Source of the DNA: an uncultured Gammaproteobacteria bacterium
GTDB taxonomy: Bacteria > Patescibacteriota > Patescibacteriia > Patescibacteriales > GWE2-39-37
DNA: 64,000 nucleotides
Direction of reading: 5' to 3'
NCBI GenBank assembly: GCA_964443495.1
Contig: CAYUCS010000001.1
Coordinates: 405,496-469,495, forward strand
Position 1 is the first letter of the stretch; the number at the start of each line of letters is the position of its first letter. Positions 285 to 52,199 of this stretch are shown here, in pieces. The translations under genes were made by a program, and so were the position numbers. A model generated the notes under the pieces. The model was not told where the DNA came from and searched no databases. It was given only the letters and a program-made list of their open reading frames with translations.

Positions 285-1292
285 ATGAATGTCGCCATCA
301 ATGGATTCGGCCGGATCGGCCGCGCCTCTTTCAAGGCTCTGCTTGAAAAAAAGAATATCAAAGTCGTTGCCATTAACGACTTGACCGACACCGAAACTTT
401 GGCTCATCTTTTGAAATATGATTCCTGCTATGGCATTTACGATAGGAAAGTCAGTCACACCAAGGATGCTATCTTGGTCGATGGCGTGCGCTACCCGGTT
501 TATGCCGTGAAGGACCCGACCCAGCTGCCCTGGAAAGCGTTGAAGGTCGATATGGTCATCGAATCCACTGGACGCTTCGTCAAGCAGGAGGAGGCGGGGA
601 TGCACCTGACCGCCGGTGCCAAGAAGGTCGTGATTTCCGCTCCGGCCAAAGGCGGCGACGTCAAGACGATCGTCTTGGGCGTGAATGAAGAGCAGCTGAC
701 CAAAGCTGATACGGTTTTCTCCATGGCTTCTTGCACCACCAACTGCCTAGCGCCGGTCACCTCGGTAATAGAGAAAGAGTTCGGCATCAAGAAGGCGATC
801 ATGACCACAGTCCATTCCTATACCGCCGACCAGAATCTGGTCGATGGGCCGCACAAGGACTTGCGCCGCGCCCGCGCCGCTGCCTTGAATATCGTCCCGA
901 CCTCGACCGGCGCAGCCATCGCCGTAGCCGAAACCATCCCCTCGCTCAAGGGCAACTTCGACGGCGGCGCTATGCGCGTCCCGACCCCGACTGGCTCGCT
1001 CTGCGACGTGGTCTATATCTTGAAGAAGAATGTCGATGCCGATATCGTGAATAAGGCAATCAAGGCCGCGACCAAATCACCGAAGCTCAAGAACGTCCTA
1101 GTGGCGACTGACGAGCCGATCGTCTCATCCGATATCGTCGGCAACCCGGCCAGCTCGATCGTCGACCTGTCCTTGACCAAGGTCCTGGGGGGCGACCTTC
1201 TGAAGATCGTTTCCTGGTACGACAACGAGTGGGGCTATTCCTGCCGCCTGGCCGATGTCTGCGAGATGGTGGGGAAGAAGAAATTAACATAG
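285..1292 (+). CDS. gap: Glyceraldehyde-3-phosphate dehydrogenase
   Basis: 335 aa. N-terminal NGFGRIGR dinucleotide-binding motif, catalytic ASCTTNCLAP motif and WYDNEWGYS near the C-terminus. Confidence 0.95.
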   Translation: MNVAINGFGRIGRASFKALLEKKNIKVVAINDLTDTETLAHLLKYDSCYGIYDRKVSHTKDAILVDGVRYPVYAVKDPTQLPWKALKVDMVIESTGRFVKQEEAGMHLTAGAKKVVISAPAKGGDVKTIVLGVNEEQLTKADTVFSMASCTTNCLAPVTSVIEKEFGIKKAIMTTVHSYTADQNLVDGPHKDLRRARAAALNIVPTSTGAAIAVAETIPSLKGNFDGGAMRVPTPTGSLCDVVYILKKNVDADIVNKAIKAATKSPKLKNVLVATDEPIVSSDIVGNPASSIVDLSLTKVLGGDLLKIVSWYDNEWGYSCRLADVCEMVGKKKLT

Positions 1293-1324
1293 TCCATCAC
1301 TCTGGTTGACGTTAAAATTGAAGC

Positions 1325-1630
1325 ATGGATAAAAATAAGTCACAAACAAAATTGTCACAAGTTGTTATTGCATCAATAATTTCGGCAATAGTTTTTGTTG
1401 CGTTAATGAGATGGTATATTTTATGGTTATTTGATGGGGTTCAGATTTACAGTGCTCTTGTCTTTATTTATCCTCGGGTCTGGGTGCCTCCATTGCTAAT
1501 GTTTATTTCGGTGCCAATTTCATTCGCCTCTATTTTTAAATGCAAGGATGAAACACTTAAAGTATTATCACTTCAATTATTGTTCGTTTCGTTGATGGTG
1601 GCCGGTGTTATTATTTTCAGCCCGTTCTAA
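1325..1630 (+). CDS. Small hypothetical membrane protein (3 predicted TM helices)
   Basis: 101-aa ORF with hydrophobic stretches, lying in a visibly AT-rich islet between gap and the hydrogenase operon. No recognisable motif. Confidence 0.4.
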   Translation: MDKNKSQTKLSQVVIASIISAIVFVALMRWYILWLFDGVQIYSALVFIYPRVWVPPLLMFISVPISFASIFKCKDETLKVLSLQLLFVSLMVAGVIIFSPF

Positions 1631-1652
1631 ATATATTAATTTTTGCATAGTA

Positions 1653-2705
1653 ATGGTAAGTATTATAGAAAAAATAAGAATAGCGAAATTGGTCGGACGG
1701 GGCGGCGCTGGGTTTCCAGTGGCTGATAAGTGGCAGATGGTATTCGATGCCAAGGGCGAGAAGAAATATGTGGTTTGCAATTGCTCTGAAGGTGAGCCTG
1801 GCCCGAAAAAGGATGGCTGGCTCATCTGGCATTACCCGGATCGGATCATCGACGGCATGCGTTTGGCGATCGAGTTTCTCGGGGCCGAGAAAGGTGTTTT
1901 TTATTTGAATCAGGAATACTACAAGAAGTATAAGAAGATATTGGAAGATGCGATTGCGGATAGCCGGGCGCCGATCGAGCTTTTTGCCAAGCCGCACGTA
2001 GCGGGCTATATCGGCGGGGAAGAAACCACAGTACTTAATGTCATTGAGGGCAAGCGAGCCGAGCCGCGCCTGCGTCCGCCATTTCCAGTGACTTCCGGAC
2101 TTTGGGACTGTCCGACTTTGGTGAACAATGTCGAAACTTTTTATAATGTCAGCTTGGTGGCGCGTGATGAGTTCAAGAATCTGCGCTATTACACCATCGG
2201 CGGCGACTGCCTGTACGAAGGAGTCTTCGGATTTCCGGCCGATATGAATGTGGGTGAGGTGCTTAAGCAGACTAATAATTATCCGAAGTACGATTTCTTC
2301 GTCCAGGTCGGAGGCGACGGCTCGGGCGAGGTCTGGTCGCAGAAGCAATTGGACAAGCCGGCTATCGGCGCCGGCTCCATCCGAGTCTATAGCCTTTCCA
2401 AATACAAGCCCAACGACCTTCTCAGGCAGTGGGTCAAATTTTTCAAGGACGAGTCTTGCGGCCAGTGCACCGCTTGCCGCGAGGGCACCTATCGGCTGGC
2501 AGAAATACTGGAAGAAGAGAAGCCTAATTGGCCGATGGTTGCCGATTTGCTGGCAAACCTGAACGACTCTGCTTTCTGCGGTCTGGGCAGTGCCGTGCCG
2601 ATTCCGGTGACGAGCTATATCAAGAATGTCCTGGCTGCCTATCCGGAGAGTAAGACCAATCTGCCGATGGGAGCCAAGAGGCTGATGACAAGCTGTTTTA
2701 ATTAA
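1653..2705 (+). CDS. NuoF/HoxF-like NAD(P)H-binding FMN/FeS flavoprotein (hydrogenase diaphorase subunit)
   Basis: Motifs: GRGGAGFP, CNCSEGEPGPKKDG, YIGGEETTVLNVIEG, ESCGQCTACREG plus FCGLG (N3-type 4Fe-4S). Start placed at the ATG at 1653 (MVSIIEK); the track start at 1605 would overlap the upstream ORF. Confidence 0.85.
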   Translation: MVSIIEKIRIAKLVGRGGAGFPVADKWQMVFDAKGEKKYVVCNCSEGEPGPKKDGWLIWHYPDRIIDGMRLAIEFLGAEKGVFYLNQEYYKKYKKILEDAIADSRAPIELFAKPHVAGYIGGEETTVLNVIEGKRAEPRLRPPFPVTSGLWDCPTLVNNVETFYNVSLVARDEFKNLRYYTIGGDCLYEGVFGFPADMNVGEVLKQTNNYPKYDFFVQVGGDGSGEVWSQKQLDKPAIGAGSIRVYSLSKYKPNDLLRQWVKFFKDESCGQCTACREGTYRLAEILEEEKPNWPMVADLLANLNDSAFCGLGSAVPIPVTSYIKNVLAAYPESKTNLPMGAKRLMTSCFN

Positions 2706-2714
2706 AATAATCAT

Positions 2715-3554
2715 ATGAGCCCAATTTATCGTCCTAAGACGCATCCTGTCAGGCGAGATGGCAAGCTGAGCGAATTCGAGCAGCTGCTCAAGGAATCGTT
2801 CAGGATTTACAAAGCAAAGTTCAACCTGGTCCTGCCGCTCGCTATCATCCTGATGATCAATTCATTGGTTCTGGCCGGCGCCAATTATTTCGTTTTCCGA
2901 GCGATCGGATTAAGGGCCGGGCTGAGCTCCGCCGCCGCCTTGCTTTTTTGGCTCGTCGTCGTGGCTTTGACCATATATGTATATTCGCTCTGCCAAGCCG
3001 CATTGTTGACAGCGCTCAGAGAGAAGGTTGCGCCGGAAATCAAGAAGCTGTTCAAGCACGCGAGAGTGATCGCGTTAGGTTATGCCAAGCTGTACGTTTA
3101 CGTACGCGCCTTGATCCTGATGTGGATGCTCCCGTTCATCGCCGCCATGGTCGCATTGCTGGCTAGGCATGGCCAGCCGTTCGGCTCTGACGCCGAGATA
3201 GTATCGACCGTTTCTTACGCGCTGCCATTGGCTATCCCGGGGCTCGTCTTCATCCTTCTTTATGCCTTTTCTTCATACGTCTTCGTATATGAAGGGGAGA
3301 CGATCGCTGAGTCGGTCAAGACGAGCAAGCGCATGGTCGGACGGTTTTTCTGGCCGCTCTTGGGCAAGTATTCCTTGCTGCTGCTTTTGAACTTGGCTGT
3401 CTATTACATCATCAATTGGGGAATCGGCTTCTTGCCGGGGGAGGCGGCCAAGCAGCTCTTGTCGCGCCTGTTCGACAGCTTGATCGGACCGGTCTACACG
3501 ATCTTCGGCTACCTATTGTATCAGGAAATCAAGGAAATTAAGACTGAAAAATAA
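2715..3554 (+). CDS. Hypothetical polytopic membrane protein embedded in the hydrogenase operon
   Basis: 279 aa with about 6 hydrophobic segments. Starts 10 nt after the previous stop, and its stop overlaps the next start (TAATG at 3552-3556). Confidence 0.6.
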   Translation: MSPIYRPKTHPVRRDGKLSEFEQLLKESFRIYKAKFNLVLPLAIILMINSLVLAGANYFVFRAIGLRAGLSSAAALLFWLVVVALTIYVYSLCQAALLTALREKVAPEIKKLFKHARVIALGYAKLYVYVRALILMWMLPFIAAMVALLARHGQPFGSDAEIVSTVSYALPLAIPGLVFILLYAFSSYVFVYEGETIAESVKTSKRMVGRFFWPLLGKYSLLLLLNLAVYYIINWGIGFLPGEAAKQLLSRLFDSLIGPVYTIFGYLLYQEIKEIKTEK

Positions 3555-5266
3555 TGCCTGAAAATAAGATCAATATCACGATTGATGGCAAGAAGGTCAG
3601 CTGCCTGCCGGGCCAGACCGTCCTTGAGGCGGCGGCGGCTAACGGCGTGGAAATCCCAAGCCTGTGCGAGCATCCTGATTTTCCGCACAAGGCAAATTGC
3701 CGGGTCTGCGTCGTGGAGGTCAAAGGACGGCGCAATCTCGCTACTTCGTGTTCGACGCCGGTGGCTGAGGGCATGGAAATCCAGACTAACTCTGACCGAG
3801 TCATCCGTTCCCGCAACCTTAATTTGGAGATGATTTTCGCCGAGCATATCGAGAAATGCGCGACCTGCGTCTGGCGTCTCAACTGCAAGCTTCTGGCCTA
3901 CTCGGCCAAGTACAAGATATTGTTGACGACCTTCAAGGATCGCAAGGCAAATCGGCTGACGTACAAGTTCGAGAATGCGGTCGAGCTGGACGGCGCTCAG
4001 TGCATCGATTGCCGCAACTGCGTCGATGCTTGTTCCAAGCTGCAGAAAATTAATTATCTCCAAGTCAAAGGCAAGGGCTCGGACCAGGAAATATGCCCGA
4101 CCGACGACAAGAATGTGGCTTGTATCCTGTGCGGCCAGTGCGCTGTGCATTGTCCGGTCAGTTCAGCTCAAGAGCAATATCATTATCAGGAAGTCCAGAA
4201 GATAATCAAGGAAGGGAAGAAGACGGTCGTCATCCAATTCGCCCCCTCGATCCGCGTTTCGATCGGCGAAGAGTTCAATTTGCCCTACGGCGCGATCGTG
4301 ACCGAGCAGATGGTCGAGGCGATGAAACTGCTGGGCTTCAATTATGTTTTTGATGTGAATTTCGCCGCCGACGTCACGACCATGGTCGAGGCGGGCGAGC
4401 TGATCGAGCGCATCAAGGATGGGGGCGCCATGCCGATGCTGACTTCGTGCTGCCCCGCTTGGGTGCGCTACGTCGAGTATTACCGCCCCGACTTGATTCC
4501 GAACTTGACTACTTCGCGTTCGCCGCAGATACACTTGGGCGGCATCATCAAGACTTTCTGGGCCGAACAGGCCAAGATAGATCCGAAAAATATCGTCGTC
4601 GTATCGGTCATGCCATGCACGGCCAAAAAATATGAAGCCGCCCGCGCTGAACTAAAGATCGGCGGCGACAACCCCGTCGATTACGTCCTGACCACGCGCG
4701 AGCTGGCATTCATGATCAAGACTGCCAATATCGATTTTTCCAAATTGAAAGGCGTCAAAGCCGACGAGCCTTTAGGCGAATACACTGGCGCGGCCGCGCT
4801 GTATGGAGGCTCTGGCGGCGTTATGGAATCGGCCTTGCGCACCGCCCAAGCCGTGATTTGCGGCGAGGACAGTCCGCTGTGCCATGACCGTCTGGAATTC
4901 TTGGACGCGCGCGGCCTCGATGGCATCAAAGAGGCGACGGTCGAGATGGGCCAACGCAAGCTGAGAGTAGCTGTCATCAATGGCATCGGCCATTGGAAGG
5001 ATTTCGAGCCGAGGCTCAAGGAGTTCGATTATATCGAGGTCATGTCGTGCCCGGGCGGCTGCATCGGCGGCGGCGGCGAGCCGATTCCGACGACCGATGC
5101 CATCCGCAAAGCACGAGCCCAGGCCCTGCTCAAGATCGATCGCGATATGCCGGTGCGCGAGGCGCACAAGAACCAAGGCGTCAAGAAAGTCCTGACCTGG
5201 CTCGAGCAGCGAGGCAAAAGCTTCGAGCACGGCGTCCTGCATACGAAATATATAAAAAGAAGATAG
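3554..5266 (+). CDS. hydA: [FeFe]-hydrogenase catalytic subunit with N-terminal 2Fe-2S and multiple 4Fe-4S domains
   Basis: H-cluster signatures TSCCPAW, MPCTAKKYE and EVMSCPGGCIGGGGEP. N-terminal plant-type ferredoxin-like domain, a HIEKCATCVWRLNC (NuoG/HoxU-like) motif, and two CxxCxxCxxxCP motifs. Confidence 0.9.
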   Translation: MPENKINITIDGKKVSCLPGQTVLEAAAANGVEIPSLCEHPDFPHKANCRVCVVEVKGRRNLATSCSTPVAEGMEIQTNSDRVIRSRNLNLEMIFAEHIEKCATCVWRLNCKLLAYSAKYKILLTTFKDRKANRLTYKFENAVELDGAQCIDCRNCVDACSKLQKINYLQVKGKGSDQEICPTDDKNVACILCGQCAVHCPVSSAQEQYHYQEVQKIIKEGKKTVVIQFAPSIRVSIGEEFNLPYGAIVTEQMVEAMKLLGFNYVFDVNFAADVTTMVEAGELIERIKDGGAMPMLTSCCPAWVRYVEYYRPDLIPNLTTSRSPQIHLGGIIKTFWAEQAKIDPKNIVVVSVMPCTAKKYEAARAELKIGGDNPVDYVLTTRELAFMIKTANIDFSKLKGVKADEPLGEYTGAAALYGGSGGVMESALRTAQAVICGEDSPLCHDRLEFLDARGLDGIKEATVEMGQRKLRVAVINGIGHWKDFEPRLKEFDYIEVMSCPGGCIGGGGEPIPTTDAIRKARAQALLKIDRDMPVREAHKNQGVKKVLTWLEQRGKSFEHGVLHTKYIKRR

Positions 5267-5267
5267 T

Positions 5268-5894
5268 ATGGATTATTTAAACGAAGAAGAGCCGGTTGGC
5301 AAGATCGGTGAAGATGAGCTTGAGGCCTTGGCCGAAGAGGAAGAGGCGTCTGGCGACGAGGGCGGAAGGGTCGAAGAGGAGGAGATGGAACGGGTAGATG
5401 CAAAAATCATGGCCTGGTTTCTGGGGTTATCGACAACTGCCATGTCCGTACCCTTGATCGTCCACCTGCAGCCGTTCAGCGGTCCCATCATCAATGCCGT
5501 CCTGATCCTGATACTGTTCATTGTCGGCATCCGCAGCGCTTTGGTCGTCGCTCTCATCCCTAGCCTGGTGGCCTTGGCCGGCGGTTTGCTGCCCGCCATT
5601 TTGGCACCGGCCGTACCGTTCATCATGCTCAGCAATGTGATATTCATAATTACCATCGATTGGTTCTATAATACGATCGTCGATCCGCAAAGGGGATATT
5701 GGACCGGAGTCCTGATCGGCGCTGGTCTGAAGTTCGCTTTCCTGCTAGCCTCGACTAGCGTCGTCTCGGGGTTGCTGCTTAAGCAGGAACTGGCGCCGAA
5801 GGTGGCGCAGATAATGAGCTGGCCGCAGTTCGCCACAGCCGTGGTCGGCGGCGCGATCGCTTGGATGGTCTTAAGATGGCTAAAGAAGATATAA
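5268..5894 (+). CDS. Hypothetical membrane protein with acidic N-terminal tail, embedded in the hydrogenase operon
   Basis: 208 aa with a highly acidic first ~45 aa (EEEPVGKIGEDELEALAEEEEASGDEG...) followed by about 5 TM segments. 1-nt gaps to both neighbouring genes. Confidence 0.6.
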   Translation: MDYLNEEEPVGKIGEDELEALAEEEEASGDEGGRVEEEEMERVDAKIMAWFLGLSTTAMSVPLIVHLQPFSGPIINAVLILILFIVGIRSALVVALIPSLVALAGGLLPAILAPAVPFIMLSNVIFIITIDWFYNTIVDPQRGYWTGVLIGAGLKFAFLLASTSVVSGLLLKQELAPKVAQIMSWPQFATAVVGGAIAWMVLRWLKKI

Positions 5895-5895
5895 T

Positions 5896-6366
5896 ATGGA
5901 TAATCAAAAGAAAAAAGTCGGAGTTTTTTCGATTACTTGCGACGAGGGCTGCAGCATCTATCTGATCGAGATTTTCAACAAGAAGCTGCTTGGGTGGTTG
6001 GAGAAGATGGAAATCAAGTACTTCCTGTCGATGAAGGACAAGGTCGAAATCAAGGATTTTGATATCGTGCTGATCGAAGGCGTCATATCCTCGGAGCGCG
6101 ACTTGCGCGAGGTAATAAAAATCCGCGAGAATACCAAGGTGTTGATCGCTATGGGCACCTGCGCCATGACCGCTTTCCCGTCGGGCCAGCGCAACAACTT
6201 CACTCCGGAGCAGCTTGAACGCATCCAGCCGAAGCTCAAGGAGTTCAGCTATTTGCCCAAGTGTTTGGCCCTGAAGGATGCGGTCAAGGTTGACGACAAC
6301 ATCCCGGGTTGCCCTATTGACGAGAAGAAATTCATCGAGGTATTCGAAAAATGGCTGAACATGTAG
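5896..6366 (+). CDS. [NiFe]-hydrogenase small subunit (group 3-like, NuoB/20-kDa fold)
   Basis: 156 aa. Cysteines sit in SITCDEGCS, MGTCAM and PGCP contexts typical of the proximal 4Fe-4S cluster of short group-3 small subunits. Lies directly upstream of the large subunit. Confidence 0.75.
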   Translation: MDNQKKKVGVFSITCDEGCSIYLIEIFNKKLLGWLEKMEIKYFLSMKDKVEIKDFDIVLIEGVISSERDLREVIKIRENTKVLIAMGTCAMTAFPSGQRNNFTPEQLERIQPKLKEFSYLPKCLALKDAVKVDDNIPGCPIDEKKFIEVFEKWLNM

Positions 6367-6386
6367 CGTGTAACACGTAACATGTA
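6360..6386. repeat. Left arm of ~27-bp imperfect inverted repeat flanking the four-helix-bundle cassette
   Basis: CATGTAGCGTGTAACACGTAACATGTA. It continues into three tandem YGTAACA heptamers (6369-6389) and pairs with the reverse complement of 6746-6772. Confidence 0.75.
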
Positions 6387-6393
6387 ACAATGT

Positions 6394-6738
6394 ATGAATA
6401 CTTATCATGATAAACTAAAGAAAATAATGGATGAATATGCTCATGGTGTTTATCGCGCAACAAAAACTTTTCCGAAAGAGGAGCTATTTGGGATAACTTC
6501 ACAAATTAGAAGATCGTCACTGTCTGTTGTGCTTAATTATGTTGAAGGTTATGCCAGAAGAAAGGGTGATAAGTGTAAGGTATATCAGAATTTTATGGAA
6601 ATTGCATACGGATCATTAAAAGAGTCAAAATATTTGTTGAATTTTTGTTTGGTTGAGGGATATATTAATAAAAATCAATTTGAACAGTTAAATGGTATGG
6701 CAGACCAAATCGGCGCCATGCTTTACAAAATTAATTAA
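6394..6738 (+). CDS. Four-helix-bundle protein (23S rRNA intervening-sequence protein family)
   Basis: 114 aa. The motifs ELFGITSQIRRSSLSVVLNYVEGYARR and AYGSLKESKYLLNF are characteristic of this family. The gene is markedly AT-richer than its flanks. Confidence 0.75.
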   Translation: MNTYHDKLKKIMDEYAHGVYRATKTFPKEELFGITSQIRRSSLSVVLNYVEGYARRKGDKCKVYQNFMEIAYGSLKESKYLLNFCLVEGYINKNQFEQLNGMADQIGAMLYKIN

Positions 6739-6745
6739 ATTTTGC

Positions 6746-6772
6746 TGCATGTTACACGTTACATGCTACATG
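6746..6772. repeat. Right arm of the inverted repeat flanking the four-helix-bundle cassette
   Basis: TGCATGTTACACGTTACATGCTACATG. Its reverse complement, CATGTAGCATGTAACGTGTAACATGCA, matches the left arm at about 24 of 27 positions. Confidence 0.75.
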
Positions 6773-6779
6773 AAATACT

Positions 6780-8075
6780 ATGCATACCTGTGATTTGAAC
6801 GTTAGCATCAACAAGCTTTCCAAGATAGAAGGCCATGCCGACCTGGATGTCGAAATCAAGGACGGCAAGGTGGTAAATGTCGATTTGCGCGTCATGGAGA
6901 ATCTGCGTTTTTTTGAGGAAGCCGTGAAGGGGCAATCGGCTTTGGCCGTGCCGACGCTCGTGTCTCGCATCTGCGGCACTTGCTCGATCGCCCACCTGAC
7001 TGCCTGCACTGAGGCGGTGGAAAAGACTCTGGGCATCAAGATTACGGAGCAGACGCTGGCGCTGCGCAAGCTGACCATGCACAGCCTGATGATCCGTGAC
7101 CATGCATTGCATCTGTATTTTTTCGTGGCGCCGGACCTGTTCGGCGTCGATTCAGCCCTAGACATTCCGGAGGAGCACAAGGAGCTGATCCATCAAGCGT
7201 TGCACATCAAGGAGGCGGGCAACAACCTTTCGACCTTGGTGGCCGGACGTTCGGTGCATGCGACTTACGAGATGGTCGGCGGCTTCAGCCACGTGCCGGA
7301 AAAGGAAAAGATCGCTCCGACCATCGAGGAGCTTCGAAGCATCCGGCCCATGGTCTTGGATCTCTGTGAGATTTTTTACAAATGCGACTGGGTGTTGAAG
7401 CGCAAGACCAATTTTGTCGCCTTGGCTACGGATGATTTCTCCTATCTCGAAGGCAGGATCAAGAGCTCGACCGGGGCCGTAATCGAGGAAAAGGATTATT
7501 GGGACCACTTGCACAAGGTGATCATTCCATATTCGCAGGCTTCGGGCTTCGAGTTCGAAGGCGAGGAATTCATGGTCGGCTCCCTGGCTCGGCTGAATCT
7601 GAACAAGGAGGCGCTCCATGCCGACACCAAGCGCGACGCCGCGAAATACCTGGAACTCTTTCCGTCTGATAATATTTATCACAACAACCTGGCCCAGGCC
7701 ATCGAGATACTGCATTCGATCGACCACTCGATCGAGCTCTTGCAGAAATACGATTTCAAGAAAGAGGAAATCGTCAAGCCGACCGTCATGGACGGCGAAG
7801 GCGTCGGCGTAATCGAAGCGCCTCGCGGGACGCTTTATTACTGGCTCGGAGTCAACGGCGGCAAAGTACGCTATGCCAATCTGATCATCCCGACGGCCCA
7901 GAACCTGGTGAATATGCGCGAAGACGTCCGCCAAGCCGTGATGAATATCTGCGCGATCGGGGGAGAGAAGGCGGAACTCGAAGAGCGTATCAGGAAGGAG
8001 ATGGAAAAGATGATCCGGGCTTACGACCCGTGCATGTCATGCGCTTCGCATTTCTTGAAAATCAATTGGAAATAA
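6780..8075 (+). CDS. [NiFe]-hydrogenase large subunit (group 3-like)
   Basis: 431 aa. N-terminal RICGTCSIAH and C-terminal DPCMSCASH nickel-binding cysteine pairs, with a short tail after the His consistent with endopeptidase processing. Confidence 0.9.
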   Translation: MHTCDLNVSINKLSKIEGHADLDVEIKDGKVVNVDLRVMENLRFFEEAVKGQSALAVPTLVSRICGTCSIAHLTACTEAVEKTLGIKITEQTLALRKLTMHSLMIRDHALHLYFFVAPDLFGVDSALDIPEEHKELIHQALHIKEAGNNLSTLVAGRSVHATYEMVGGFSHVPEKEKIAPTIEELRSIRPMVLDLCEIFYKCDWVLKRKTNFVALATDDFSYLEGRIKSSTGAVIEEKDYWDHLHKVIIPYSQASGFEFEGEEFMVGSLARLNLNKEALHADTKRDAAKYLELFPSDNIYHNNLAQAIEILHSIDHSIELLQKYDFKKEEIVKPTVMDGEGVGVIEAPRGTLYYWLGVNGGKVRYANLIIPTAQNLVNMREDVRQAVMNICAIGGEKAELEERIRKEMEKMIRAYDPCMSCASHFLKINWK

Positions 8076-8076
8076 G

Positions 8077-8104
8077 AAAACGCCCCGCTAGCCGGGGCGT
8101 TTTT
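8077..8104. terminator. Bidirectional rho-independent terminator between the hydrogenase operon and the convergent protease gene
   Basis: AAAA-CGCCCCG-CTAGC-CGGGGCG-TTTTT: a 7-bp GC stem flanked by an A-run and a T-run. Confidence 0.7.
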
Positions 8105-8489
8105 GTGAGAATTCTTTGATTTTCTTGGCTAACTGCTCGAAAACCTTGACGCTGTCGCCGCCGGCCGGCAGTCCGAAGATGGTAACTTTGTCGAGCAGCC
8201 CGATCTTGGAAAGGAGTTTCAGGTTGAAGCCGAGATCGAGGTCGTGCAGCGAGTAGTTGGGTGAACGCTCGATCTTGTCGAGGTCAGTCAGGACGACGAC
8301 TTCTTCCGGGCCGACTACGGTATCGATCAATATCAGCTCGCCGTTTTCCGGCCGGAGATTCTCGTTCGGATCCTGCCAGATGAAGTCGAATTGCGGAAAC
8401 GCCAGCTTCAAGGACGGCTCGAGGATCAGCGGCAGATTATCTTCAGCTAGAAGAGGGTTGCCAAAAAGATAAATGGTTGTTTTTTTCAT
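8088..8489 (-). CDS. Hydrogenase maturation endopeptidase (HycI/HoxW-like)
   Basis: 133 aa. Motifs FGNPLLAEDNLPL (GNxxxxDD-like), IDTV and SLHDLDL match the metal-ligand pattern of [NiFe] maturation proteases. Convergent with the large-subunit gene. Confidence 0.6.
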   Translation of the reverse strand: MKKTTIYLFGNPLLAEDNLPLILEPSLKLAFPQFDFIWQDPNENLRPENGELILIDTVVGPEEVVVLTDLDKIERSPNYSLHDLDLGFNLKLLSKIGLLDKVTIFGLPAGGDSVKVFEQLAKKIKEFSQKRPG

Positions 8490-27474: not shown

Positions 27475-28776
27475 ATGGCTAAAATCGATAAAATCCACGC
27501 CCGGGAGATATTGGATTCGCGCGGCAACCCAACGGTTGAAACCAAGGTCTATCTCTCTGACGGTACCGTAGCCAAGGCTAGCGTGCCTTCGGGCGCTTCT
27601 ACCGGGGTTCATGAAGCTTGGGAGCTGCGCGACGGTGATAAGCAGCGTTATGAAGGCCAGGGAGTTTTGCAGGCCGTGAAGAATGTAAATGAATCCATCA
27701 GCAAGGCCGTGATCGGGATGGAGGCCGATGATCAGGAGGCGCTCGATCACGCCATGATAAAATTAGATGGCACAGAGAATAAATCGAAGCTTGGCGCCAA
27801 CGCCATACTTAGCGTTTCCCTGGCTTGCGCCAGGGCAGCGGCAATGTCACGGAAGCAGGAACTCTATGCCTATCTGGCTGAAAGCTTCAGTTTTTCGAAG
27901 GATTACCGCCTGCCAACGCCGTCATTCAATATCTTTAACGGCGGCAAGCATGCCGATACCAACCTTGATTTCCAAGAGTTCATGATCCTTCCCTTGAGCC
28001 AGGTCAGTTTCAAGGAGAAAGTGAGGATGGGGTCGGAGATCTTCCATAGCCTGGGCCGCGTGCTTAAATCTGCCGGTTTCGATACCGATGTCGGCAACGA
28101 GGGCGGCTACGCCCCGGATATCGTTTCCAGCATCCAAGCCATCGAGTTGATCGTGGCTTCGATGATCAAAGCCGGGTACAAGCCGGGCAAAGAGATCGGA
28201 CTTGGCATCGATGTCGGTTCATCGCAACTATTCAATCCGGAGACGGGCAAATACATCTTCAAGCTGGACCAGGCGACTTTTTCCAATAGCACCTTGGTCG
28301 GCCTCTATCACGAGTGGTGGCGCAAGTTCCCGATAATCTCGATCGAGGACGGCTTGGCTGAAGACGATTGGGCTGGCTGGCGCGATCTGACCAAGGAGCT
28401 GGGCGGCGAAATGCTTCTGATCGGCGACGACTTGTTCGTGACCAATACGGCCCGTTTGCGCAAGGGCATCAAGGAAAAGGTGGCCAATGCTATCCTGATC
28501 AAAGTCAATCAGGTCGGCACCCTGACCGAAACCATCGAGTGCATCAAATTAGCCCAGAAGCATAAGTACAAGATCATGGTCTCGCACCGTTCCGGCGAGA
28601 CTTCGGACGATTTCATCGCCGACCTGGCGGTGGCGGTCGGAGCCGAATACATCAAGTCCGGCTCACTGTCTCGCAGCGAGCGTTTAGCCAAGTATAATCG
28701 TTTGATGGAAATCGAAGATATCATCGAATCGCAAACCAAACCAAAGACAAAACATGCAAAAGTTAAAAGTAAGTAA
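27475..28776 (+). CDS. eno: Enolase
   Basis: ILDSRGNPTVE, SGASTG, IKVNQVGTLTET and SHRSGETSD. Confidence 0.95.
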   Translation: MAKIDKIHAREILDSRGNPTVETKVYLSDGTVAKASVPSGASTGVHEAWELRDGDKQRYEGQGVLQAVKNVNESISKAVIGMEADDQEALDHAMIKLDGTENKSKLGANAILSVSLACARAAAMSRKQELYAYLAESFSFSKDYRLPTPSFNIFNGGKHADTNLDFQEFMILPLSQVSFKEKVRMGSEIFHSLGRVLKSAGFDTDVGNEGGYAPDIVSSIQAIELIVASMIKAGYKPGKEIGLGIDVGSSQLFNPETGKYIFKLDQATFSNSTLVGLYHEWWRKFPIISIEDGLAEDDWAGWRDLTKELGGEMLLIGDDLFVTNTARLRKGIKEKVANAILIKVNQVGTLTETIECIKLAQKHKYKIMVSHRSGETSDDFIADLAVAVGAEYIKSGSLSRSERLAKYNRLMEIEDIIESQTKPKTKHAKVKSK

Positions 28777-30334
28777 GCCGACTATTCTCGTCATACTTGA
28801 CGGCTGGGGTATTGATCAGGCGAATCGCGGAAACGCAATCACTTTGTCAAAGACTCCGAATCTTAATTACCTCTTAAAGAACTATCCCAGCACGCAGCTG
28901 GGCGCTTCGGGGCGTTTTGTCGGTCTGCCGAACGGCCAAGACGGCAACAGCGAGGCTGGCCACATGAACCTCGGGGCCGGTCGCATCGCCGAGCAGGATG
29001 CTGTCCGCATCAGCCGCAACATAACCAACGGCACTTTTTTCAAGAATCCGGCTTTTCTCGAAGCAGTCAATCACGCCAAGGAGAACGGCGGCAACGTCCA
29101 TCTGATGGGCATGCTCGGGAACAATATGACAGCTCACAGCGATCCTGATCACCTGCTGGCCCTGATTGCCTTCTTGAAAAAAGAGGGGGTGCAAAGGATC
29201 AATCTGCATCTTTTCACGGATGGCCGCGATTCGCCTAAGTATGCCGCCATAAAGCTGATGCGCCAGCTTGAGAAGTCATTTACCGGCGTTGAAACTATCA
29301 ATACGGTCATGGGCCGCTTTTACGCCATGGACCGCAAGAAAGTCTGGCAGCGGACCGAGATGGCGTACAATGTCTTGGTCGAAGGCGGCTGCGAGGCTGC
29401 TGAGTGCCGCTGGTCATTGAATCCGGAAGAGGCGATTACCGAAGCTTATAATCGCGGCGAGAGCGATGAATTCATCCTGCCGTACATCATCGGACGTCCA
29501 GGCAAGCCTTATCCTCGCATTGCTGACGGAGACAGCGTCATTTTCTTCAACTTGCGTTCCGACCGCGCTCGACAGCTGGCTAAAGCCTTCGTCCAGCCGA
29601 ATTTCAACGAGTTGAATCCGGGATCGTTCAAGCGGCGGGTCGTTTTCAAGAACTTGTGCTTCGTGGCCATGACCGACTTCGGTCCGGATTTGGATAGCAT
29701 TCTTTCGGCATTTCCGAGTCCTGACCTGACTGATACCTTGCCGATGCAGCTTAAGGAGAGAAGTCAGCTGTATATCGCTGAAACCGAAAAATATGCGCAC
29801 GTCACATACTTTTTCAATGGCGGATATTCCGATCCGGTCGCGGGTGAATCACGGATCCTGGTGCCGTCGCCGGATGTCCGGTCTTATGATGAAACGCCGG
29901 AAATGAGCTCAAAGGAGTTGGTCAAGGAAGTCGTCAGCAACCTGAAAAAGAAGAAATTCGATTTCACTGCCTTGAATTTCGCCGCACCGGACATGATCGG
30001 CCACACCGGAAATCTTGAGGCGGCGATCAAATGCTGCGAAGCCGTCGATGGCTATGTCGGCAAGCTGGTCGAGGCGTACCACAAAATCGGCGGCACGCTC
30101 ATTATTACGGCTGACCATGGCAATATCGAGCGCATGATCAATCTCCAGACCGGCGAGATAGACACCGAGCACACCACCAACCCCGTGCCGTTCATCTTGG
30201 TCAACCAAGAATTAAGGAATCGGGCAAAGCTTCGTAACGATGGCGTACTGGGCGATGTGGCTCCGACTATCCTGGACCTGTTCGGACTCCCGCTACCTAA
30301 GGCGATGGCCCGTAAAAGCTTATTGTTAAGATAA
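28754..30334 (+). CDS. gpmI: 2,3-bisphosphoglycerate-independent phosphoglycerate mutase, paralog 1 (more divergent)
   Basis: ILDGWG, GNSEAGHMNLGAGR, FTDGRDSP, TEKYAHVTYFFNGG, PDMIGHTG and TADHGN. Overlaps eno by 23 nt. Confidence 0.85.
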   Translation: MQKLKVSKPTILVILDGWGIDQANRGNAITLSKTPNLNYLLKNYPSTQLGASGRFVGLPNGQDGNSEAGHMNLGAGRIAEQDAVRISRNITNGTFFKNPAFLEAVNHAKENGGNVHLMGMLGNNMTAHSDPDHLLALIAFLKKEGVQRINLHLFTDGRDSPKYAAIKLMRQLEKSFTGVETINTVMGRFYAMDRKKVWQRTEMAYNVLVEGGCEAAECRWSLNPEEAITEAYNRGESDEFILPYIIGRPGKPYPRIADGDSVIFFNLRSDRARQLAKAFVQPNFNELNPGSFKRRVVFKNLCFVAMTDFGPDLDSILSAFPSPDLTDTLPMQLKERSQLYIAETEKYAHVTYFFNGGYSDPVAGESRILVPSPDVRSYDETPEMSSKELVKEVVSNLKKKKFDFTALNFAAPDMIGHTGNLEAAIKCCEAVDGYVGKLVEAYHKIGGTLIITADHGNIERMINLQTGEIDTEHTTNPVPFILVNQELRNRAKLRNDGVLGDVAPTILDLFGLPLPKAMARKSLLLR

Positions 30335-30337
30335 TAT

Positions 30338-31936
30338 ATGTTAAGCAAAGATCAGCAATTAAAGAAACCGAAACCCGTCGTCTTGGCCGTTCTTGACGGT
30401 TGGGGTATCGTGCAGCCTTACAGCGGCAACGCTATCAGCCAGGCTAACATTCCGACCATGAAGGAACTGATCGCCAAATATCCTGCCATGACCATCCGTG
30501 CCTCCGGCGAGGCGGTCGGATTGCCCTGGGGCAAGGATGGCAACAGCGAGGTCGGCCATCTGAATCTGGGCATGGGCCGGATCATGTATCAGGATCTGCC
30601 TAGGATCAATAAATCGATAAATGACAACAGTTTCTATCAGAATCAAGCCCTGATCGATGCGATCAAGCACGTCAAGAGCAATAGTTCCAAACTCCATGTC
30701 ATGGGACTGGTTTCGAACGGAGGCGTCCATGCCTCTATCGAGCATCTGCAGGCCTTGCTCGTACTGGCGAAGGAACAGGGAGTGGAGCAGGTTTATATCC
30801 ACGCCATCCTGGACGGCAGGGATACGCCCTATAACAGCGGTTTGAATTATCTTAAGGATATCACCCGCACGATCGCCGAATACGGTGTCGGCAAGATCGC
30901 TACCATATCCGGACGCTTCTACCCTATGGATCGAGACAATCATTGGGATCGCATCGAGAAAGCTTATCTCGCGATGACCGCGGGTCAGGGCAATAAGGCC
31001 AGTGATCCGGTCATGGCCATCGAGGATAGCTATGGCAAGAAAATATACGATGAGGAATTCGTGCCCACGGTTATCGAACAGGGAGGCAAGCCGGTCGGCT
31101 TGGTCGAGCAAGGCGATTCATTGATATTTTTCAATTACCGTCCCGATCGCGCCAGGCAGATTACTAAGGCCTTTGCCTTGCCGAGCTTCGACAAATTCAG
31201 CCGTCCCAAATATCTGACAGACCTGCTCTTCGTTTGCTTTACTGAGTATGAGAAAGATATTCCGGTCGAGGTAGCCTTTCCTCCTGAAGAGATCAAGGAT
31301 ACGTTGGGTGAAATCATTGCCAATGCCGGATTGAAACAGCTGCGAATCGCCGAAACCGAGAAGTACGCCCATGTCACATATTTTTTCAATGGCGGCAGGG
31401 AAACCAAATCGGAGGGCGAAACGCATGATCTCGTGCCTTCGCCGCCGGTGCCTAGTTATGACATGAAGCCGGAAATGTCGGCCTTCGAGGTGACTGACAA
31501 GCTTATCAAGGCTATCAATGAAGATCTCTATGATTTCATCCTGGTAAACTTTGCTAACGCTGACATGGTCGGGCATACTGGAAATATCCGAGCCACAAGT
31601 CAGGCATGCGAGGCGGTCGATAAATGCGTCAAGCGCCTGGTCGATGCCGTGCTGCCGAAGGGCGGAGTGATAATGATTACGGCTGATCACGGCAACGCCG
31701 AGGCCAAGTTTAACATGCAGACTGGCAGCATCTCGAAAGAACATACCGCCAACCCCGTTCCATTCATTATCGTGGGCAAAGAATTCGAGGGCCGACGGAT
31801 CGGCGGCCAAGACGCGTTCGGCGGCGACTTAAGCCTTGTCCAGCCGCAGGGAATCCTGTCCGACGTCGCTCCGACCGTCTTGCGCATATTGGGATTAGAG
31901 AAGCCAGAAGCGATGACCGGCAGGTCACTGGTCTGA
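30338..31936 (+). CDS. gpmI: 2,3-bisphosphoglycerate-independent phosphoglycerate mutase, paralog 2
   Basis: VLDGWG, GNSEVGHLNLGMGR, NGGVHAS, ILDGRDTP, TEKYAHVTYFFNGG, NFANADMVGHTG and TADHGN. Confidence 0.9.
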   Translation: MLSKDQQLKKPKPVVLAVLDGWGIVQPYSGNAISQANIPTMKELIAKYPAMTIRASGEAVGLPWGKDGNSEVGHLNLGMGRIMYQDLPRINKSINDNSFYQNQALIDAIKHVKSNSSKLHVMGLVSNGGVHASIEHLQALLVLAKEQGVEQVYIHAILDGRDTPYNSGLNYLKDITRTIAEYGVGKIATISGRFYPMDRDNHWDRIEKAYLAMTAGQGNKASDPVMAIEDSYGKKIYDEEFVPTVIEQGGKPVGLVEQGDSLIFFNYRPDRARQITKAFALPSFDKFSRPKYLTDLLFVCFTEYEKDIPVEVAFPPEEIKDTLGEIIANAGLKQLRIAETEKYAHVTYFFNGGRETKSEGETHDLVPSPPVPSYDMKPEMSAFEVTDKLIKAINEDLYDFILVNFANADMVGHTGNIRATSQACEAVDKCVKRLVDAVLPKGGVIMITADHGNAEAKFNMQTGSISKEHTANPVPFIIVGKEFEGRRIGGQDAFGGDLSLVQPQGILSDVAPTVLRILGLEKPEAMTGRSLV

Positions 31937-51275: not shown

Positions 51276-52199
51276 ATGGCTAACGACAAGAAAACAAAAG
51301 GCAGAATCACCATGGCGGCGGCTTTTTTGCTAGTGTCCGCCATCTCGGCATTCGCCGGGTGGTCCTTTGCCGCGCAAAAGCCCGCTGCCAAGACTCAGCA
51401 GGGTGCTTACCTCAGCCCGATAAATAATTTCATCGACAAGGGCGACTTGATAGTCAACATCCAGCCCCTTCGTGACAAGATGCAGGAAATAGGCGCAGAT
51501 CCGAACATTTCGGTGTATTTCGAGTTTCTGAACACGGGTGCCAATATCGCCGTGAACAAGGACACCGAATTCTGGCCGGCCAGCTTGATGAAAATCCCGA
51601 TAGCCATGGCCGTAATGAAGAAGATCGAGAACGGGGAATGGAGGATGTCCAATGAACTGATCCTGCTCGAGCAGGACAAGGACAGCCACTTCGGCGATCT
51701 TTACAAGTCATCGGCTAACAGCCGCTTCACGATCGAGAAGCTGCTTGACGAGATGCTTATCGAATCGGACAACACGGCTCGGACGATATTCATGCGCAAT
51801 CTGGAAAAAAGCGATATCGAAGAAGTCTTGAACCATCTGGGCATCGAGGACATCTTCAATACCGACCAGCAGGTCAGCACGAAAAAGTATTCGATATTTT
51901 GGCGTGCACTCTACACATCGAGCTATCTGTCGCCGGAGCATTCCGATCGGCTCATAAGAATCATGGCCAAGTCCGTCTCCAGCGAATATCTCGCTAGTGG
52001 CCTGCCTCAAGAAACCGAATTCAGCCATAAGATCGGAGTAATATACGATAGCAAGATCTATGCCGACTCCGGCATCGTTTACCTTCCCAAGCGCCCATAC
52101 ATCCTGACAGTGATGGTTAACGGCAAGGATAAGGAAGCGGCTGAAAAAATAATGTCTGACATATCGAAGACGGTGTATGAATATATTGCCAGCTACTAA
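51276..52199 (+). CDS. Class A beta-lactamase-like serine hydrolase (membrane anchored)
   Basis: SxxK as ASLMK, SDN as ESDNTA, and a KTG-like HKIG. N-terminal anchor present. Confidence 0.6.
   Translation: MANDKKTKGRITMAAAFLLVSAISAFAGWSFAAQKPAAKTQQGAYLSPINNFIDKGDLIVNIQPLRDKMQEIGADPNISVYFEFLNTGANIAVNKDTEFWPASLMKIPIAMAVMKKIENGEWRMSNELILLEQDKDSHFGDLYKSSANSRFTIEKLLDEMLIESDNTARTIFMRNLEKSDIEEVLNHLGIEDIFNTDQQVSTKKYSIFWRALYTSSYLSPEHSDRLIRIMAKSVSSEYLASGLPQETEFSHKIGVIYDSKIYADSGIVYLPKRPYILTVMVNGKDKEAAEKIMSDISKTVYEYIASY

Follow-up and report, generated by a model that had tools for sequence, protein, structure and literature searches.

Two separable hydrogenase cassettes, one [FeFe] and one [NiFe], joined in an operon of a Candidatus Falkowbacteria-group bacterium

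In the 64-kb stretch of contig CAYUCS010000001.1 analysed here (referred to below as the window), a run of same-strand genes encodes a NuoF-like flavoprotein (HydB), an [FeFe]-hydrogenase (HydA), the small and large subunits (SSU and LSU) of a [NiFe]-hydrogenase, and two membrane proteins, TM279 and TM208. The host is a bacterium of the Candidate Phyla Radiation (CPR) from groundwater that belongs to the Candidatus Falkowbacteria group and has a tiny genome; the closest relatives of both its LSU and its HydA occur in Candidatus Falkowbacteria and other Patescibacteria. The operon is composed of two separable cassettes, NuoF-(TM)-HydA-ECF-S and SSU-LSU-protease, where TM and ECF-S stand for TM279-like and TM208-like membrane proteins. 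On the sequence evidence, a probability of about one half is given to the reading that HydA and HydB are shared by both modules, whether as a common diaphorase or as parts of a joint complex. The evidence that carries this reading is the recurrence of the two cassettes side by side in related genomes (linked loci) and the decay of the HydA active site, with its iron-sulphur (FeS) wiring kept, in some of these relatives. An earlier note on this DNA had proposed a shared diaphorase or a single two-site complex, the latter possibly held at the membrane by TM279 and TM208.

The [FeFe] module

HydA is an intact M3 group A [FeFe]-hydrogenase, predicted to hold the clusters FS2, His-ligated FS4C, FS4B and FS4A and the H-cluster, and to end in a fused small-subunit-like C-terminus. 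The protein is matched by the Pfam families Fer2_4, NADH-G_4Fe-4S_3, Fe_hyd_lg_C (1.2e-85) and Fe_hyd_SSU, and it is classified in group A by NCBIfam TIGR02512, on which it scores 445.6 bits against a cut-off of 405.95; the best NCBIfam model is that of group A6 (NF040763), with 651.4 bits, under the cut-off of 765. All three H-cluster signatures that the earlier note had read in this product (TSCCPAW, MPCTAKKYE and EVMSCPGGCIGGGGEP) are present, as are the H-cluster cysteines C300, C355, C499 and C503 and the second-sphere residues E279, E282, R286, C299, M353, K358 and M497, and the string of key residues is that of the family consensus. The set of FeS ligands is complete, and its members (C38/49/52/66, H98/C102/105/111, C150/153/156/160 and C190/193/196/200) are invariant in the alignment. 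The closest solved relative is HydA1 of T. kivui (8a6t, E = 1.8e-146). Residues 7-208 match the HoxU model (E = 9e-37; 126.7 bits against a cut-off of 333), which agrees with the proposal that HydA has a HoxU/NuoG-like N-terminus and stands in the HoxU position.

The NuoF-like protein is recognised by Complex1_51K (8e-34) and NADH_4Fe-4S (5e-17) and contains the motifs GRGGAGF, EGEPG and CGQCTAC...C, for flavin mononucleotide (FMN), NAD(H) and the N3/B1 cluster. It aligns solely to the core, residues 184-547, of T. maritima HydB (7p5h_B), and it is without the N-terminal 2Fe-2S and C-terminal ferredoxin domains of bifurcating HydB. The protein is best described as a predicted minimal HydB that would carry FMN, a site for NAD(H) and a single [4Fe-4S] cluster of the N3/B1 type. 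No NuoE/HydC-like gene was found in the operon, in the window or in the linked relatives. HydB homologues without clusters B2-B5 are known as non-bifurcating enzymes (Schut et al. 2022, PMC9304861), and by that criterion a minimal HydB without B2-B5 and without HydC would be a non-bifurcating, NADH-only homologue from which bifurcation is not expected; the window HydAB is presumably specific for NADH.

The matches listed from a metagenome scan with a HydA profile were for the most part common group A3 enzymes, about 40% identical, and at least five CPR-like loci were among them. Among the matches listed, NuoF lies immediately 5′ of HydA in most related loci that reach far enough upstream, canonical A3 enzymes included, and this regular placement indicates that the flavoprotein belongs to the [FeFe] module. 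The NuoF-like protein is the sole flavoprotein of the cluster, as had been claimed, but gene order identifies it as HydB of the [FeFe] module and not, as also claimed, as the lone Hox-type partner of the [NiFe] module.

The [NiFe] module

The SSU has four cysteines (C15, C19, C89 and C139) that fit a single proximal [4Fe-4S] cluster; among 71 homologues of 152-181 amino acids (aa), the conservation of C15 is 92% and that of C89 and C139 is complete. It aligns to the first ~150 residues alone of group 3b and 3c small subunits (256-308 aa), and also to the 179-aa HydS of Acetomicrobium mobile. The SSU is therefore described as a minimal HyhS-like subunit that consists of the proximal-cluster domain only, with an architecture like those of the one-cluster HoxY and A. 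mobile HydS, and a subunit cut down to this domain should need an FeS partner. In the LSU, the motifs RICGTCSIAH and DPCMSCASH are found, the latter followed by a C-terminal extension of seven residues; both motifs and the SSU cysteines had been pointed out before. The best NCBIfam matches of the LSU are ShyA (265 bits) and a model named HydA, both under their equivalog cut-offs, and its closest solved relative is the alpha subunit of sulfhydrogenase I (9nez, E = 2.6e-65), followed by MvhA, A. mobile HydL (E = 9e-43) and HoxH (5xf9_D, E = 1.6e-38). By these comparisons the LSU is group-3b-like.

A 133-aa protein is encoded convergently with the LSU here and in 65 of 79 related loci, with the residues G10, N11, D17, D56, H82, D83 and D85 invariant. 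It is probably a divergent maturation endopeptidase of the HycI/HybD type for the [NiFe] large subunit, a call that is based on synteny, on aligned metal ligands and on the HycI matches of homologues. The alignment by hhalign to E. coli HybD/HycI, with reference sequences entered by hand, is colinear (P ~0.035) and places D17, D56 and H82 on the metal ligands; the homologues in L174 and L176 have precomputed HycI matches marked as weak, and the one in L175 a match marked as faint (L numbers designate loci of the comparison set). The window protein itself scores 12.4 bits (E = 0.14) on Pfam HycI (PF01750), against a cut-off of 23, a profile search of the PDB gave no match, and Foldseek matches of a single-sequence AlphaFold2 model (predicted local distance difference test, pLDDT, 52) were meaningless. 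The HycI/HoxW-like protease of the earlier note is thus favoured by gene order and ligand positions, while the Pfam statistics are weak.

Two cassettes that recur side by side

The comparison set comprised ~180 related loci, among them 80 from a profile scan of species-representative genomes and others fetched by exact look-up. The unit conserved around the LSU is SSU-LSU followed by the convergent endopeptidase, with LSU identities to the window of 64-81% in CPR loci and 51-59% in loci of DPANN and Nitrososphaerales. The order NuoF-HydA, zero to two genes, SSU-LSU and convergent protease is found in the window and in L086/87, L088/89, L010, L007, L033, L174, L175 and L176, with LSU identities to the window of 65-94% and gaps down to 8-50 nt. 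The gene order of the window is therefore conserved in relatives, the [FeFe]/[NiFe] adjacency recurring in at least nine lineages, and in a neighbour-joining tree of CPR LSU sequences the linked loci are scattered among unlinked ones. When counted by species, HydA lies within 3 kb 5′ of SSU-LSU in 3 of ~20 determinable CPR loci.

No homologue of the beta or gamma subunit was found within 4 kb of the [NiFe] cassette in 79 loci, and no FeS or flavin partner was found among the neighbour gene families that are common across loci. Frequent neighbours of the cassette are Hyp genes (HypD, HypE, the C-terminal part of HypF, and HypC-like), which flank it in related CPR loci, including the linked L010. 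GAPDH, the gene at the head of the window cluster, stands directly 5′ of NuoF-HydA in L086, L088, L010, L092, L170 and L176, and directly 5′ of the [NiFe] SSU in L012, L034 and L050.

Several further observations concern the surroundings of the [NiFe] cassette. An SSU of ~150-180 aa with LSU and convergent endopeptidase is common to L035-L085 (DPANN and Nitrososphaerales) and to L001-L034 (CPR). One locus only, L009, encodes a HypC-HydE fusion, in which residues 1-66 are a HupF_HypC domain (E = 6e-16) and the HydE equivalog score is 271 bits, above the cut-off of 254.6; a [NiFe] chaperone domain is there joined to an [FeFe] maturase beside [NiFe] structural genes. The fusion is followed by HydG (569 bits), and both genes (1070-3743) lie between GAPDH and SSU-LSU. 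In the same locus the SSU open reading frame (ORF; 3753-4406) is longer by ~60 aa at its N-terminus, and this added stretch, in which two segments are hydrophobic, may be a membrane anchor or the product of an over-extended ORF. In 32 loci, most of them archaeal (for example L065:10329-10850), the gene next to the [NiFe] cassette belongs to a family with a HypC-like C-terminal segment; the CPR members of the family, L033:2752-3492 and L174:3649-4272, match DUF6390, and the family is possibly a cassette-specific maturation chaperone. In the linked operon of L176, a 90-aa TM1266-like gene (PF21699; 6667-6939) lies between HydA and the ECF-S-like gene, and the TM1266-like family is annotated as a putative regulator of iron-only hydrogenase systems.

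Degeneration of HydA in linked relatives

HydA residues were compared in an alignment of the proteins from linked loci and 120 CPR relatives. Substitutions of C299, M353, K358 and M497 are confined to HydA proteins linked to [NiFe] genes and are found in none of ~115 other CPR relatives. In L088 (7737-9485) the proton-relay cysteine is lost (C299S); in L007 (58-1008) S232Y, M353S and M497L are accompanied by a truncated C-terminus; L174 (828-2606) has A230V and P231S; and L010 (2666-4363) combines A230S, S232V, R286N, C299S, M353A, K358Q and M497R. The FeS ligands are kept in all four proteins. Judging from these residues, HydA is catalytically degenerate in L010 and L007 and partly so in L088.

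L010 is the clearest case. Its HydA scores 346 bits on TIGR02512, below the cut-off of ~406, yet the FeS ligands are all retained, as are the four H-cluster cysteines, and NuoF, its partner, is intact. The FeS domain is 64% identical to that of the window protein, in line with other relatives (62-63%), whereas the H-domain is 42% identical, against 62-65% in other relatives. With the diaphorase and the FeS wire kept, the 2Fe site decayed and SSU-LSU next in order, the simplest reading of L010 is a [NiFe] enzyme linked to NAD, with HydA in the role of HoxU. The coupling of the two modules suggested in the earlier note gains support from these proteins in L010, L007 and partly L088; the physical complex itself we infer.

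The membrane proteins

TM208 is predicted to have six transmembrane helices after an acidic N-terminus. Of 25 homologues, 24 match the Pfam family ECF_trnsprt (PF12822; best E = 3.8e-10), with E = 0.26 for the window protein itself. An alignment-based AlphaFold2 model also has six helices (pLDDT 69), with TmRibU and CbiM as its top Foldseek matches, both below significance. TM208 had no match in an NCBIfam scan or in a profile search of the PDB. The names attached to TM208 homologues in sequence sources include 'ECF transporter S component', 'riboflavin transporter', '[Fe] hydrogenase HymD subunit' and 'iron hydrogenase', and no relevant open paper was found on 'HymD'. EcfA/T genes were not noticed when the translated ORFs of the window were read by eye, a reading made without a family search on those ORFs. 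TM208 homologues adjoin NuoF-HydA in loci without [NiFe] genes (L090, L095, L096, L099, L115 and L170), and an uncharacterised protein with four to six transmembrane segments stands beside archaeal group A enzymes (Greening et al. 2024, PMC11216029). TM208 is accordingly taken for a putative ECF S-component-like accessory of the [FeFe] module, and it may supply flavin.

TM279 matches Pfam DUF4013 (E = 0.0026), and among 24 homologues 15 match UPF0259 and five GPDPase_memb. It is a polytopic protein of the UPF0259/GPDPase_memb/DUF4013 type and an accessory of the [FeFe] module confined to one lineage; the slot between NuoF and HydA is also occupied in L086, L170 and L176. Family searches detected no cofactor-binding or docking domain in either protein. 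The linked operons L088, L010 and L175 have neither gene, and as the membrane proteins travel with the [FeFe] module they are rejected as a tether of a joint complex, contrary to the earlier proposal. The description of both as unknown also changes, in that family ties were found for each.

Shared wiring or separate enzymes

In the favoured reading, the first cassette would be a non-bifurcating NADH-linked [FeFe]-hydrogenase, made of the minimal HydB, the M3 HydA and two accessory membrane proteins, and the second a minimal [NiFe]-hydrogenase of the proximal-cluster-only SSU, the LSU and the endopeptidase. In the linked arrangement, a Y-shaped FeS wire in HydA would feed both active sites. Electrons would pass from NADH through FMN and the B1/N3 cluster of HydB to FS2 and on to a junction at FS4B, from which one arm would lead through FS4A to the H-cluster and the other through the His-ligated FS4C to the proximal cluster of the SSU and the [NiFe] site. 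FS4C is here taken as the equivalent of cluster A3, and the SSU would dock physically on HydA. A precedent is NiFe-HydABCSL of Acetomicrobium mobile (Bfu type 3), which has been structurally solved (Feng et al. 2022, PMC8880783). The clusters of its HydA form a Y-shaped array, in which the small and large subunits feed through the A3 arm and the position of the H-cluster is on a separate A4/A5 arm (PMC8880783, PMC9304861), and single-cluster small subunits dock on a HoxU/HydA-type FeS protein in the solved enzymes 5xf9 and 7t2r (PMC8880783). Given that structure, HydA serving as a wire to a [NiFe] site is geometrically reasonable.

GAPDH catalyses the glycolytic step that yields NADH. The hydrogenase genes would be transcribed together with GAPDH, and glycolytic NADH would be re-oxidised to H2, or the reaction would run in the reverse direction.

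Beyond a shared diaphorase, it can be proposed tentatively, and with distinctly more doubt than confidence, that a true two-site NADH-linked hydrogenase exists in the Falkowbacteria group and that its lineages keep stages of a hand-over from [FeFe]-HydAB to a Hox or NiFe-HydABCSL type of enzyme. Under this proposal both sites would be intact in the window, L086, L175 and L176, the proton-relay cysteine would have been lost in L088, and in L010 and L007 the H-domain would have degenerated with the wire kept.

The chief alternative, a serious one although held at somewhat less than even odds, is that two independent hydrogenases lie at one locus, perhaps on one transcript, as a hydrogen-metabolism island behind GAPDH. 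HydAB would be NADH-linked, the [NiFe] dimer would use another partner such as a soluble ferredoxin, and adjacency would come from shared regulation and from a mobile [NiFe] cassette, and not from a joint complex. Comparative evidence on this side also weighs against sharing. The cassettes are separable: SSU-LSU-protease stands alone in ~17 of 20 determinable CPR species loci and, with no FeS or flavin partner near, in 48 of 48 loci of DPANN and Nitrososphaerales, where the same truncated SSU occurs without any HydA, and the [NiFe] cassette is found after GreA, LexA, TrmB, GAPDH or CCA-PPIase-holin. Conversely, NuoF-HydA-ECF-S occurs without [NiFe] genes in L090, L095, L096, L099 and L170. One genome, Falkowbacteria RIFOXYA2_FULL_47_19, carries both cassettes unlinked on different contigs (L171 and L015), GAPDH-NuoF-TM-HydA-ECF-S-...-CCA-PPIase on one and SSU-LSU on the other; its GAPDH...CCA-PPIase backbone is syntenic with the window, and the window has its [NiFe] cassette where this genome has a ferredoxin and a histidine kinase. 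The genes between HydA and SSU vary (ECF-S, NUDIX, EamA with DUF6390, a methyltransferase, TM1266-like), and no alignment column distinguishes linked from unlinked subunits after correction (best P 0.006 over 157 SSU columns and 0.0013 over 468 LSU columns). In L009 HydE, HydG and Hyp-type genes share one neighbourhood, as would fit a general hydrogenase island. Moreover, both active sites are intact in the window, so that the argument from degeneracy is borrowed from relatives by homology, and the degenerate HydA proteins are few and not phylogenetically independent. The earlier view of the two modules as a single unit thus holds for the recurring adjacency but not for cassettes that can be separated and that in one genome are unlinked. 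What independent enzymes leave unexplained is why catalytic substitutions are confined to [NiFe]-linked HydA and why L010 has an intact NuoF and FeS ligands beside a decayed 2Fe-subsite environment; a single-cluster small subunit is also without a characterised stand-alone precedent. The reading that HydA and HydB are shared would account for these points.

The full model of the earlier note, one two-site complex tethered to the membrane by TM279 and TM208, is improbable. The operon does enclose both membrane genes, at junctions of 9, -1 and 1 nt, the arrangement is kept in L086 and L176, and the SSU of L009 has its hydrophobic N-terminal extension, but the ECF S-component-like character of TM208, its occurrence beside NuoF-HydA without [NiFe] genes, the lack of both genes in three linked operons and the lack of a detectable docking domain stand against it. 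Still less probable is that one of the modules does not work as an enzyme here, whether because the cassette was acquired recently or is in decay, or because it serves as a sensor of H2. The window was found to contain no hypA-F, hydEFG or ferredoxin genes, an IVP-type insertion separates SSU from LSU (see below), and many archaea with active [FeFe] enzymes are without recognisable maturases (PMC11216029), which makes maturation uncertain in general. The window, however, covers less than one tenth of the genome (the contig is at least 772 kb long), the ligands and second-sphere residues of both sites are intact, HydA and LSU are 94-95% identical to their L086 counterparts without frameshifts, and Hyp genes flank the cassette in related loci.

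Layout of the cluster and insertions within it

The genes of the cluster and neighbouring features are listed in Table 1. The coordinates and junctions given in the earlier note match the ORF list and a junction check, by which the HydA and SSU genes are unfused and 629 nt apart; the 114-aa gene between SSU and LSU had been overlooked. The hairpin after the LSU is a predicted bidirectional terminator that would close the operon between LSU and the convergent protease gene. A scan for promoters and terminators inside the operon gave matches near the chance level and no convincing internal terminator, and such a scan neither proves nor disproves internal transcription units. Co-transcription of the hydrogenase genes, as proposed before, is plausible from the tight junctions, the lack of a convincing internal terminator and the strong hairpin after LSU.

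Table 1. Features of the hydrogenase cluster, with positions in the window
Feature	Position	Strand	Remarks
GAPDH	285-1292	+	Head of cluster; Pfam Gp_dh_N and Gp_dh_C
Small hydrophobic/membrane ORF	1325-1630	+	101 aa; Pfam DUF2768, E = 1.4e-5 (weak)
NuoF-like flavoprotein (HydB)	1653-2705	+	350 aa; Pfam Complex1_51K, NADH_4Fe-4S
TM279 membrane protein	2715-3554	+	279 aa; 9-nt gap after NuoF-like gene
HydA	3554-5266	+	570 aa; 1-nt overlap (TAATG) with TM279 gene
TM208 membrane protein	5268-5894	+	208 aa; 1-nt gap after HydA gene
[NiFe] SSU	5896-6366	+	156 aa; 1-nt gap after TM208 gene; Pfam Oxidored_q6
Four-helix-bundle (23S rRNA IVP / Avd-like) gene	6394-6738	+	114 aa; Pfam 23S_rRNA_IVP 6.5e-26, TIGR02436
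[NiFe] LSU	6780-8075	+	431 aa; Pfam NiFeSe_Hases
GC-rich palindromic hairpin between A-run and T-run	8077-8103	.	AAAACGCCCCGCTAGCCGGGGCGTTTTT
Probable HycI/HybD-like endopeptidase	8088-8489	-	133 aa; convergent with LSU

The IVP-type gene has a GC content of 0.32, against 0.49-0.56 in the neighbouring genes, is surrounded by imperfect inverted repeats (6360-6389 and 6743-6772, arms 83-86% complementary) and is absent from L086, the 94%-identical relative. On these three grounds it is probably a mobile insertion, and a role as a hydrogenase subunit is rejected. IVP genes also lie at the SSU/LSU junction in three other lineages (L174:4790-5107, L030:340-663 and L034:1202-1417), so that the junction is either a recurrent insertion site or one of repeated loss. 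In the mRNA, the two repeats might pair into a stem of the RNase III type. The 101-aa ORF between GAPDH and the NuoF-like gene has a GC content of 0.35, against the same 0.49-0.56 in neighbours, and L086 lacks it, with 21 nt between GAPDH and NuoF; it is taken as an insertion specific to the window genome.

Elsewhere in the window, adjacent paralogous genes for cofactor-independent phosphoglycerate mutase (28754-30334 and 30338-31936) follow enolase and phosphoglycerate kinase, as identified by eye from the translations, and with GAPDH at 285 they form a group of glycolytic genes around the hydrogenase region. An exact tandem duplication of 1,559 bp (52381-53939 and 53968-55526, period 1,587 bp) lies inside an ORF for a surface protein of 1,825 aa (52177-57654); either a domain was duplicated very recently or the repeat is an artefact of assembly.

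Implications

The kinship of [FeFe] HydABC, Hox, NiFe-HydABCSL and the NADH module of complex I has been inferred from Y-shaped FeS wiring, and living intermediates are scarce. If the shared reading is true, an intact two-site operon and its wire-keeping relatives would offer directly comparable stages of the transition in bacteria, and hybrid hydrogenases, so far archaeal, would be extended to the CPR. With four proteins of 350, 570, 156 and 431 aa the system is unusually small and suits structural and biochemical tests of two H2 catalysts on one diaphorase. If the modules are independent, the locus would come down to two known enzyme types lying side by side, unusual but otherwise ordinary. 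The enzymes of CPR, DPANN and Nitrososphaerales that go by the name 'group 3b', for their part, have two subunits and lack the beta and gamma partners that define the group.

Comparison with known systems

Surveys routinely give the label 'group 3b' to relatives of the window cassette from CPR and DPANN genomes, and the alpha subunit of the group 3b sulfhydrogenases (SHI and SHII of Pyrococcus/Thermococcus) is the best match of the window LSU. Group 3b enzymes, however, have beta and gamma subunits (HydB/HydG), which are lacking in the window and near the cassette in 79 related loci, and a delta subunit with three clusters, whereas the window SSU is without the medial/distal cluster domain; the window scores are also far under the equivalog cut-offs, and the window enzyme is set outside the group. 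The group 3d enzymes HoxEFUYH/HoxFUYH (PDB 5xf9) have the same wiring, from a NuoF-like to a HoxU-like protein and on to a single-cluster SSU and the LSU. The 'HoxU' of the window differs in being a full [FeFe]-hydrogenase, HoxE is absent, all scores on Hox equivalogs are below the cut-offs, and the sequences of both LSU and SSU stand closer to groups 3b and 3c than to HoxH and HoxY, all of which places the window outside group 3d.

On the [FeFe] side, the absence of B2-B5 and HydC sets the window apart from bifurcating HydABC (group A3, Bfu type 1). Closer in kind is the Hyd1ABC type of Syntrophomonas wolfei (group A6), in which an M3 HydA is likewise combined with a NuoF-like subunit without bifurcation clusters; the window differs in lacking its NuoE-like subunit, in having [NiFe] genes in the operon and in its A6 score below the cut-off. 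With hymABCD-type clusters the window shares a polytopic protein that some sources name 'HymD'. Taken together, the window operon most resembles, by sequence, a putative non-bifurcating NADH-dependent HydAB with an attached Hox-like [NiFe] branch.

NiFe-HydABCSL of A. mobile resembles the window in the combination of a HydA-type FeS protein, a NuoF-like HydB and a [NiFe] module, and in its one-cluster small subunit. Its HydA has lost the H-cluster motif, which the window HydA keeps, it is bifurcating and has HydC and B2-B5, unlike the minimal HydB of the window without HydC, and its HydL is more distant from the window LSU (E = 9e-43) than is group 3b (E = 2.6e-65). Of the features that define the type, only the one-cluster small subunit is held in common, and the window is not a member. 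The L010 relative, with its degenerate H-domain, resembles a step towards the NiFe-HydABCSL state.

The literature yielded no described CPR [FeFe]/[NiFe] operon, an absence that is weak evidence given the incomplete coverage, and nothing specific on the minimal [NiFe] clade. Hybrid [FeFe]/[NiFe] clusters are nevertheless on record from archaea, and their [FeFe] part has been studied biochemically (Greening et al. 2024, Cell; PMC11216029), and a joint complex of group F/G [FeFe] with group 3f/3g [NiFe] enzymes has been proposed from AlphaFold models (PMC11216029). As in the window, the [FeFe] subunit, a NuoF-like diaphorase and a group 3 SSU and LSU are contiguous in the archaeal F/G hybrids, and in group G the SSU is unfused and 3′ of HydA; group F is defined by a HydA-HyhS fusion, whereas the window genes are separate. 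The archaeal hybrids carry HydC (NuoE-like), a HydD conduit and a bifurcating-type HydB, none of which the window has, and their HydA forms a deep lineage outside groups A-E, ~25% identical to CrHydA1, in contrast to the M3 group A HydA of the window. Gene content and a group A HydA thus set the window apart from the F/G hybrids, as does its CPR bacterial host, the hosts of those hybrids being archaea. The earlier statement that no characterised enzyme has this composition is consistent with the differences from each known system, but it passes over two precedents, the archaeal hybrids (PMC11216029) and NiFe-HydABCSL (PMC8880783). The window operon is a bacterial version of the hybrid-hydrogenase theme already known from archaea.

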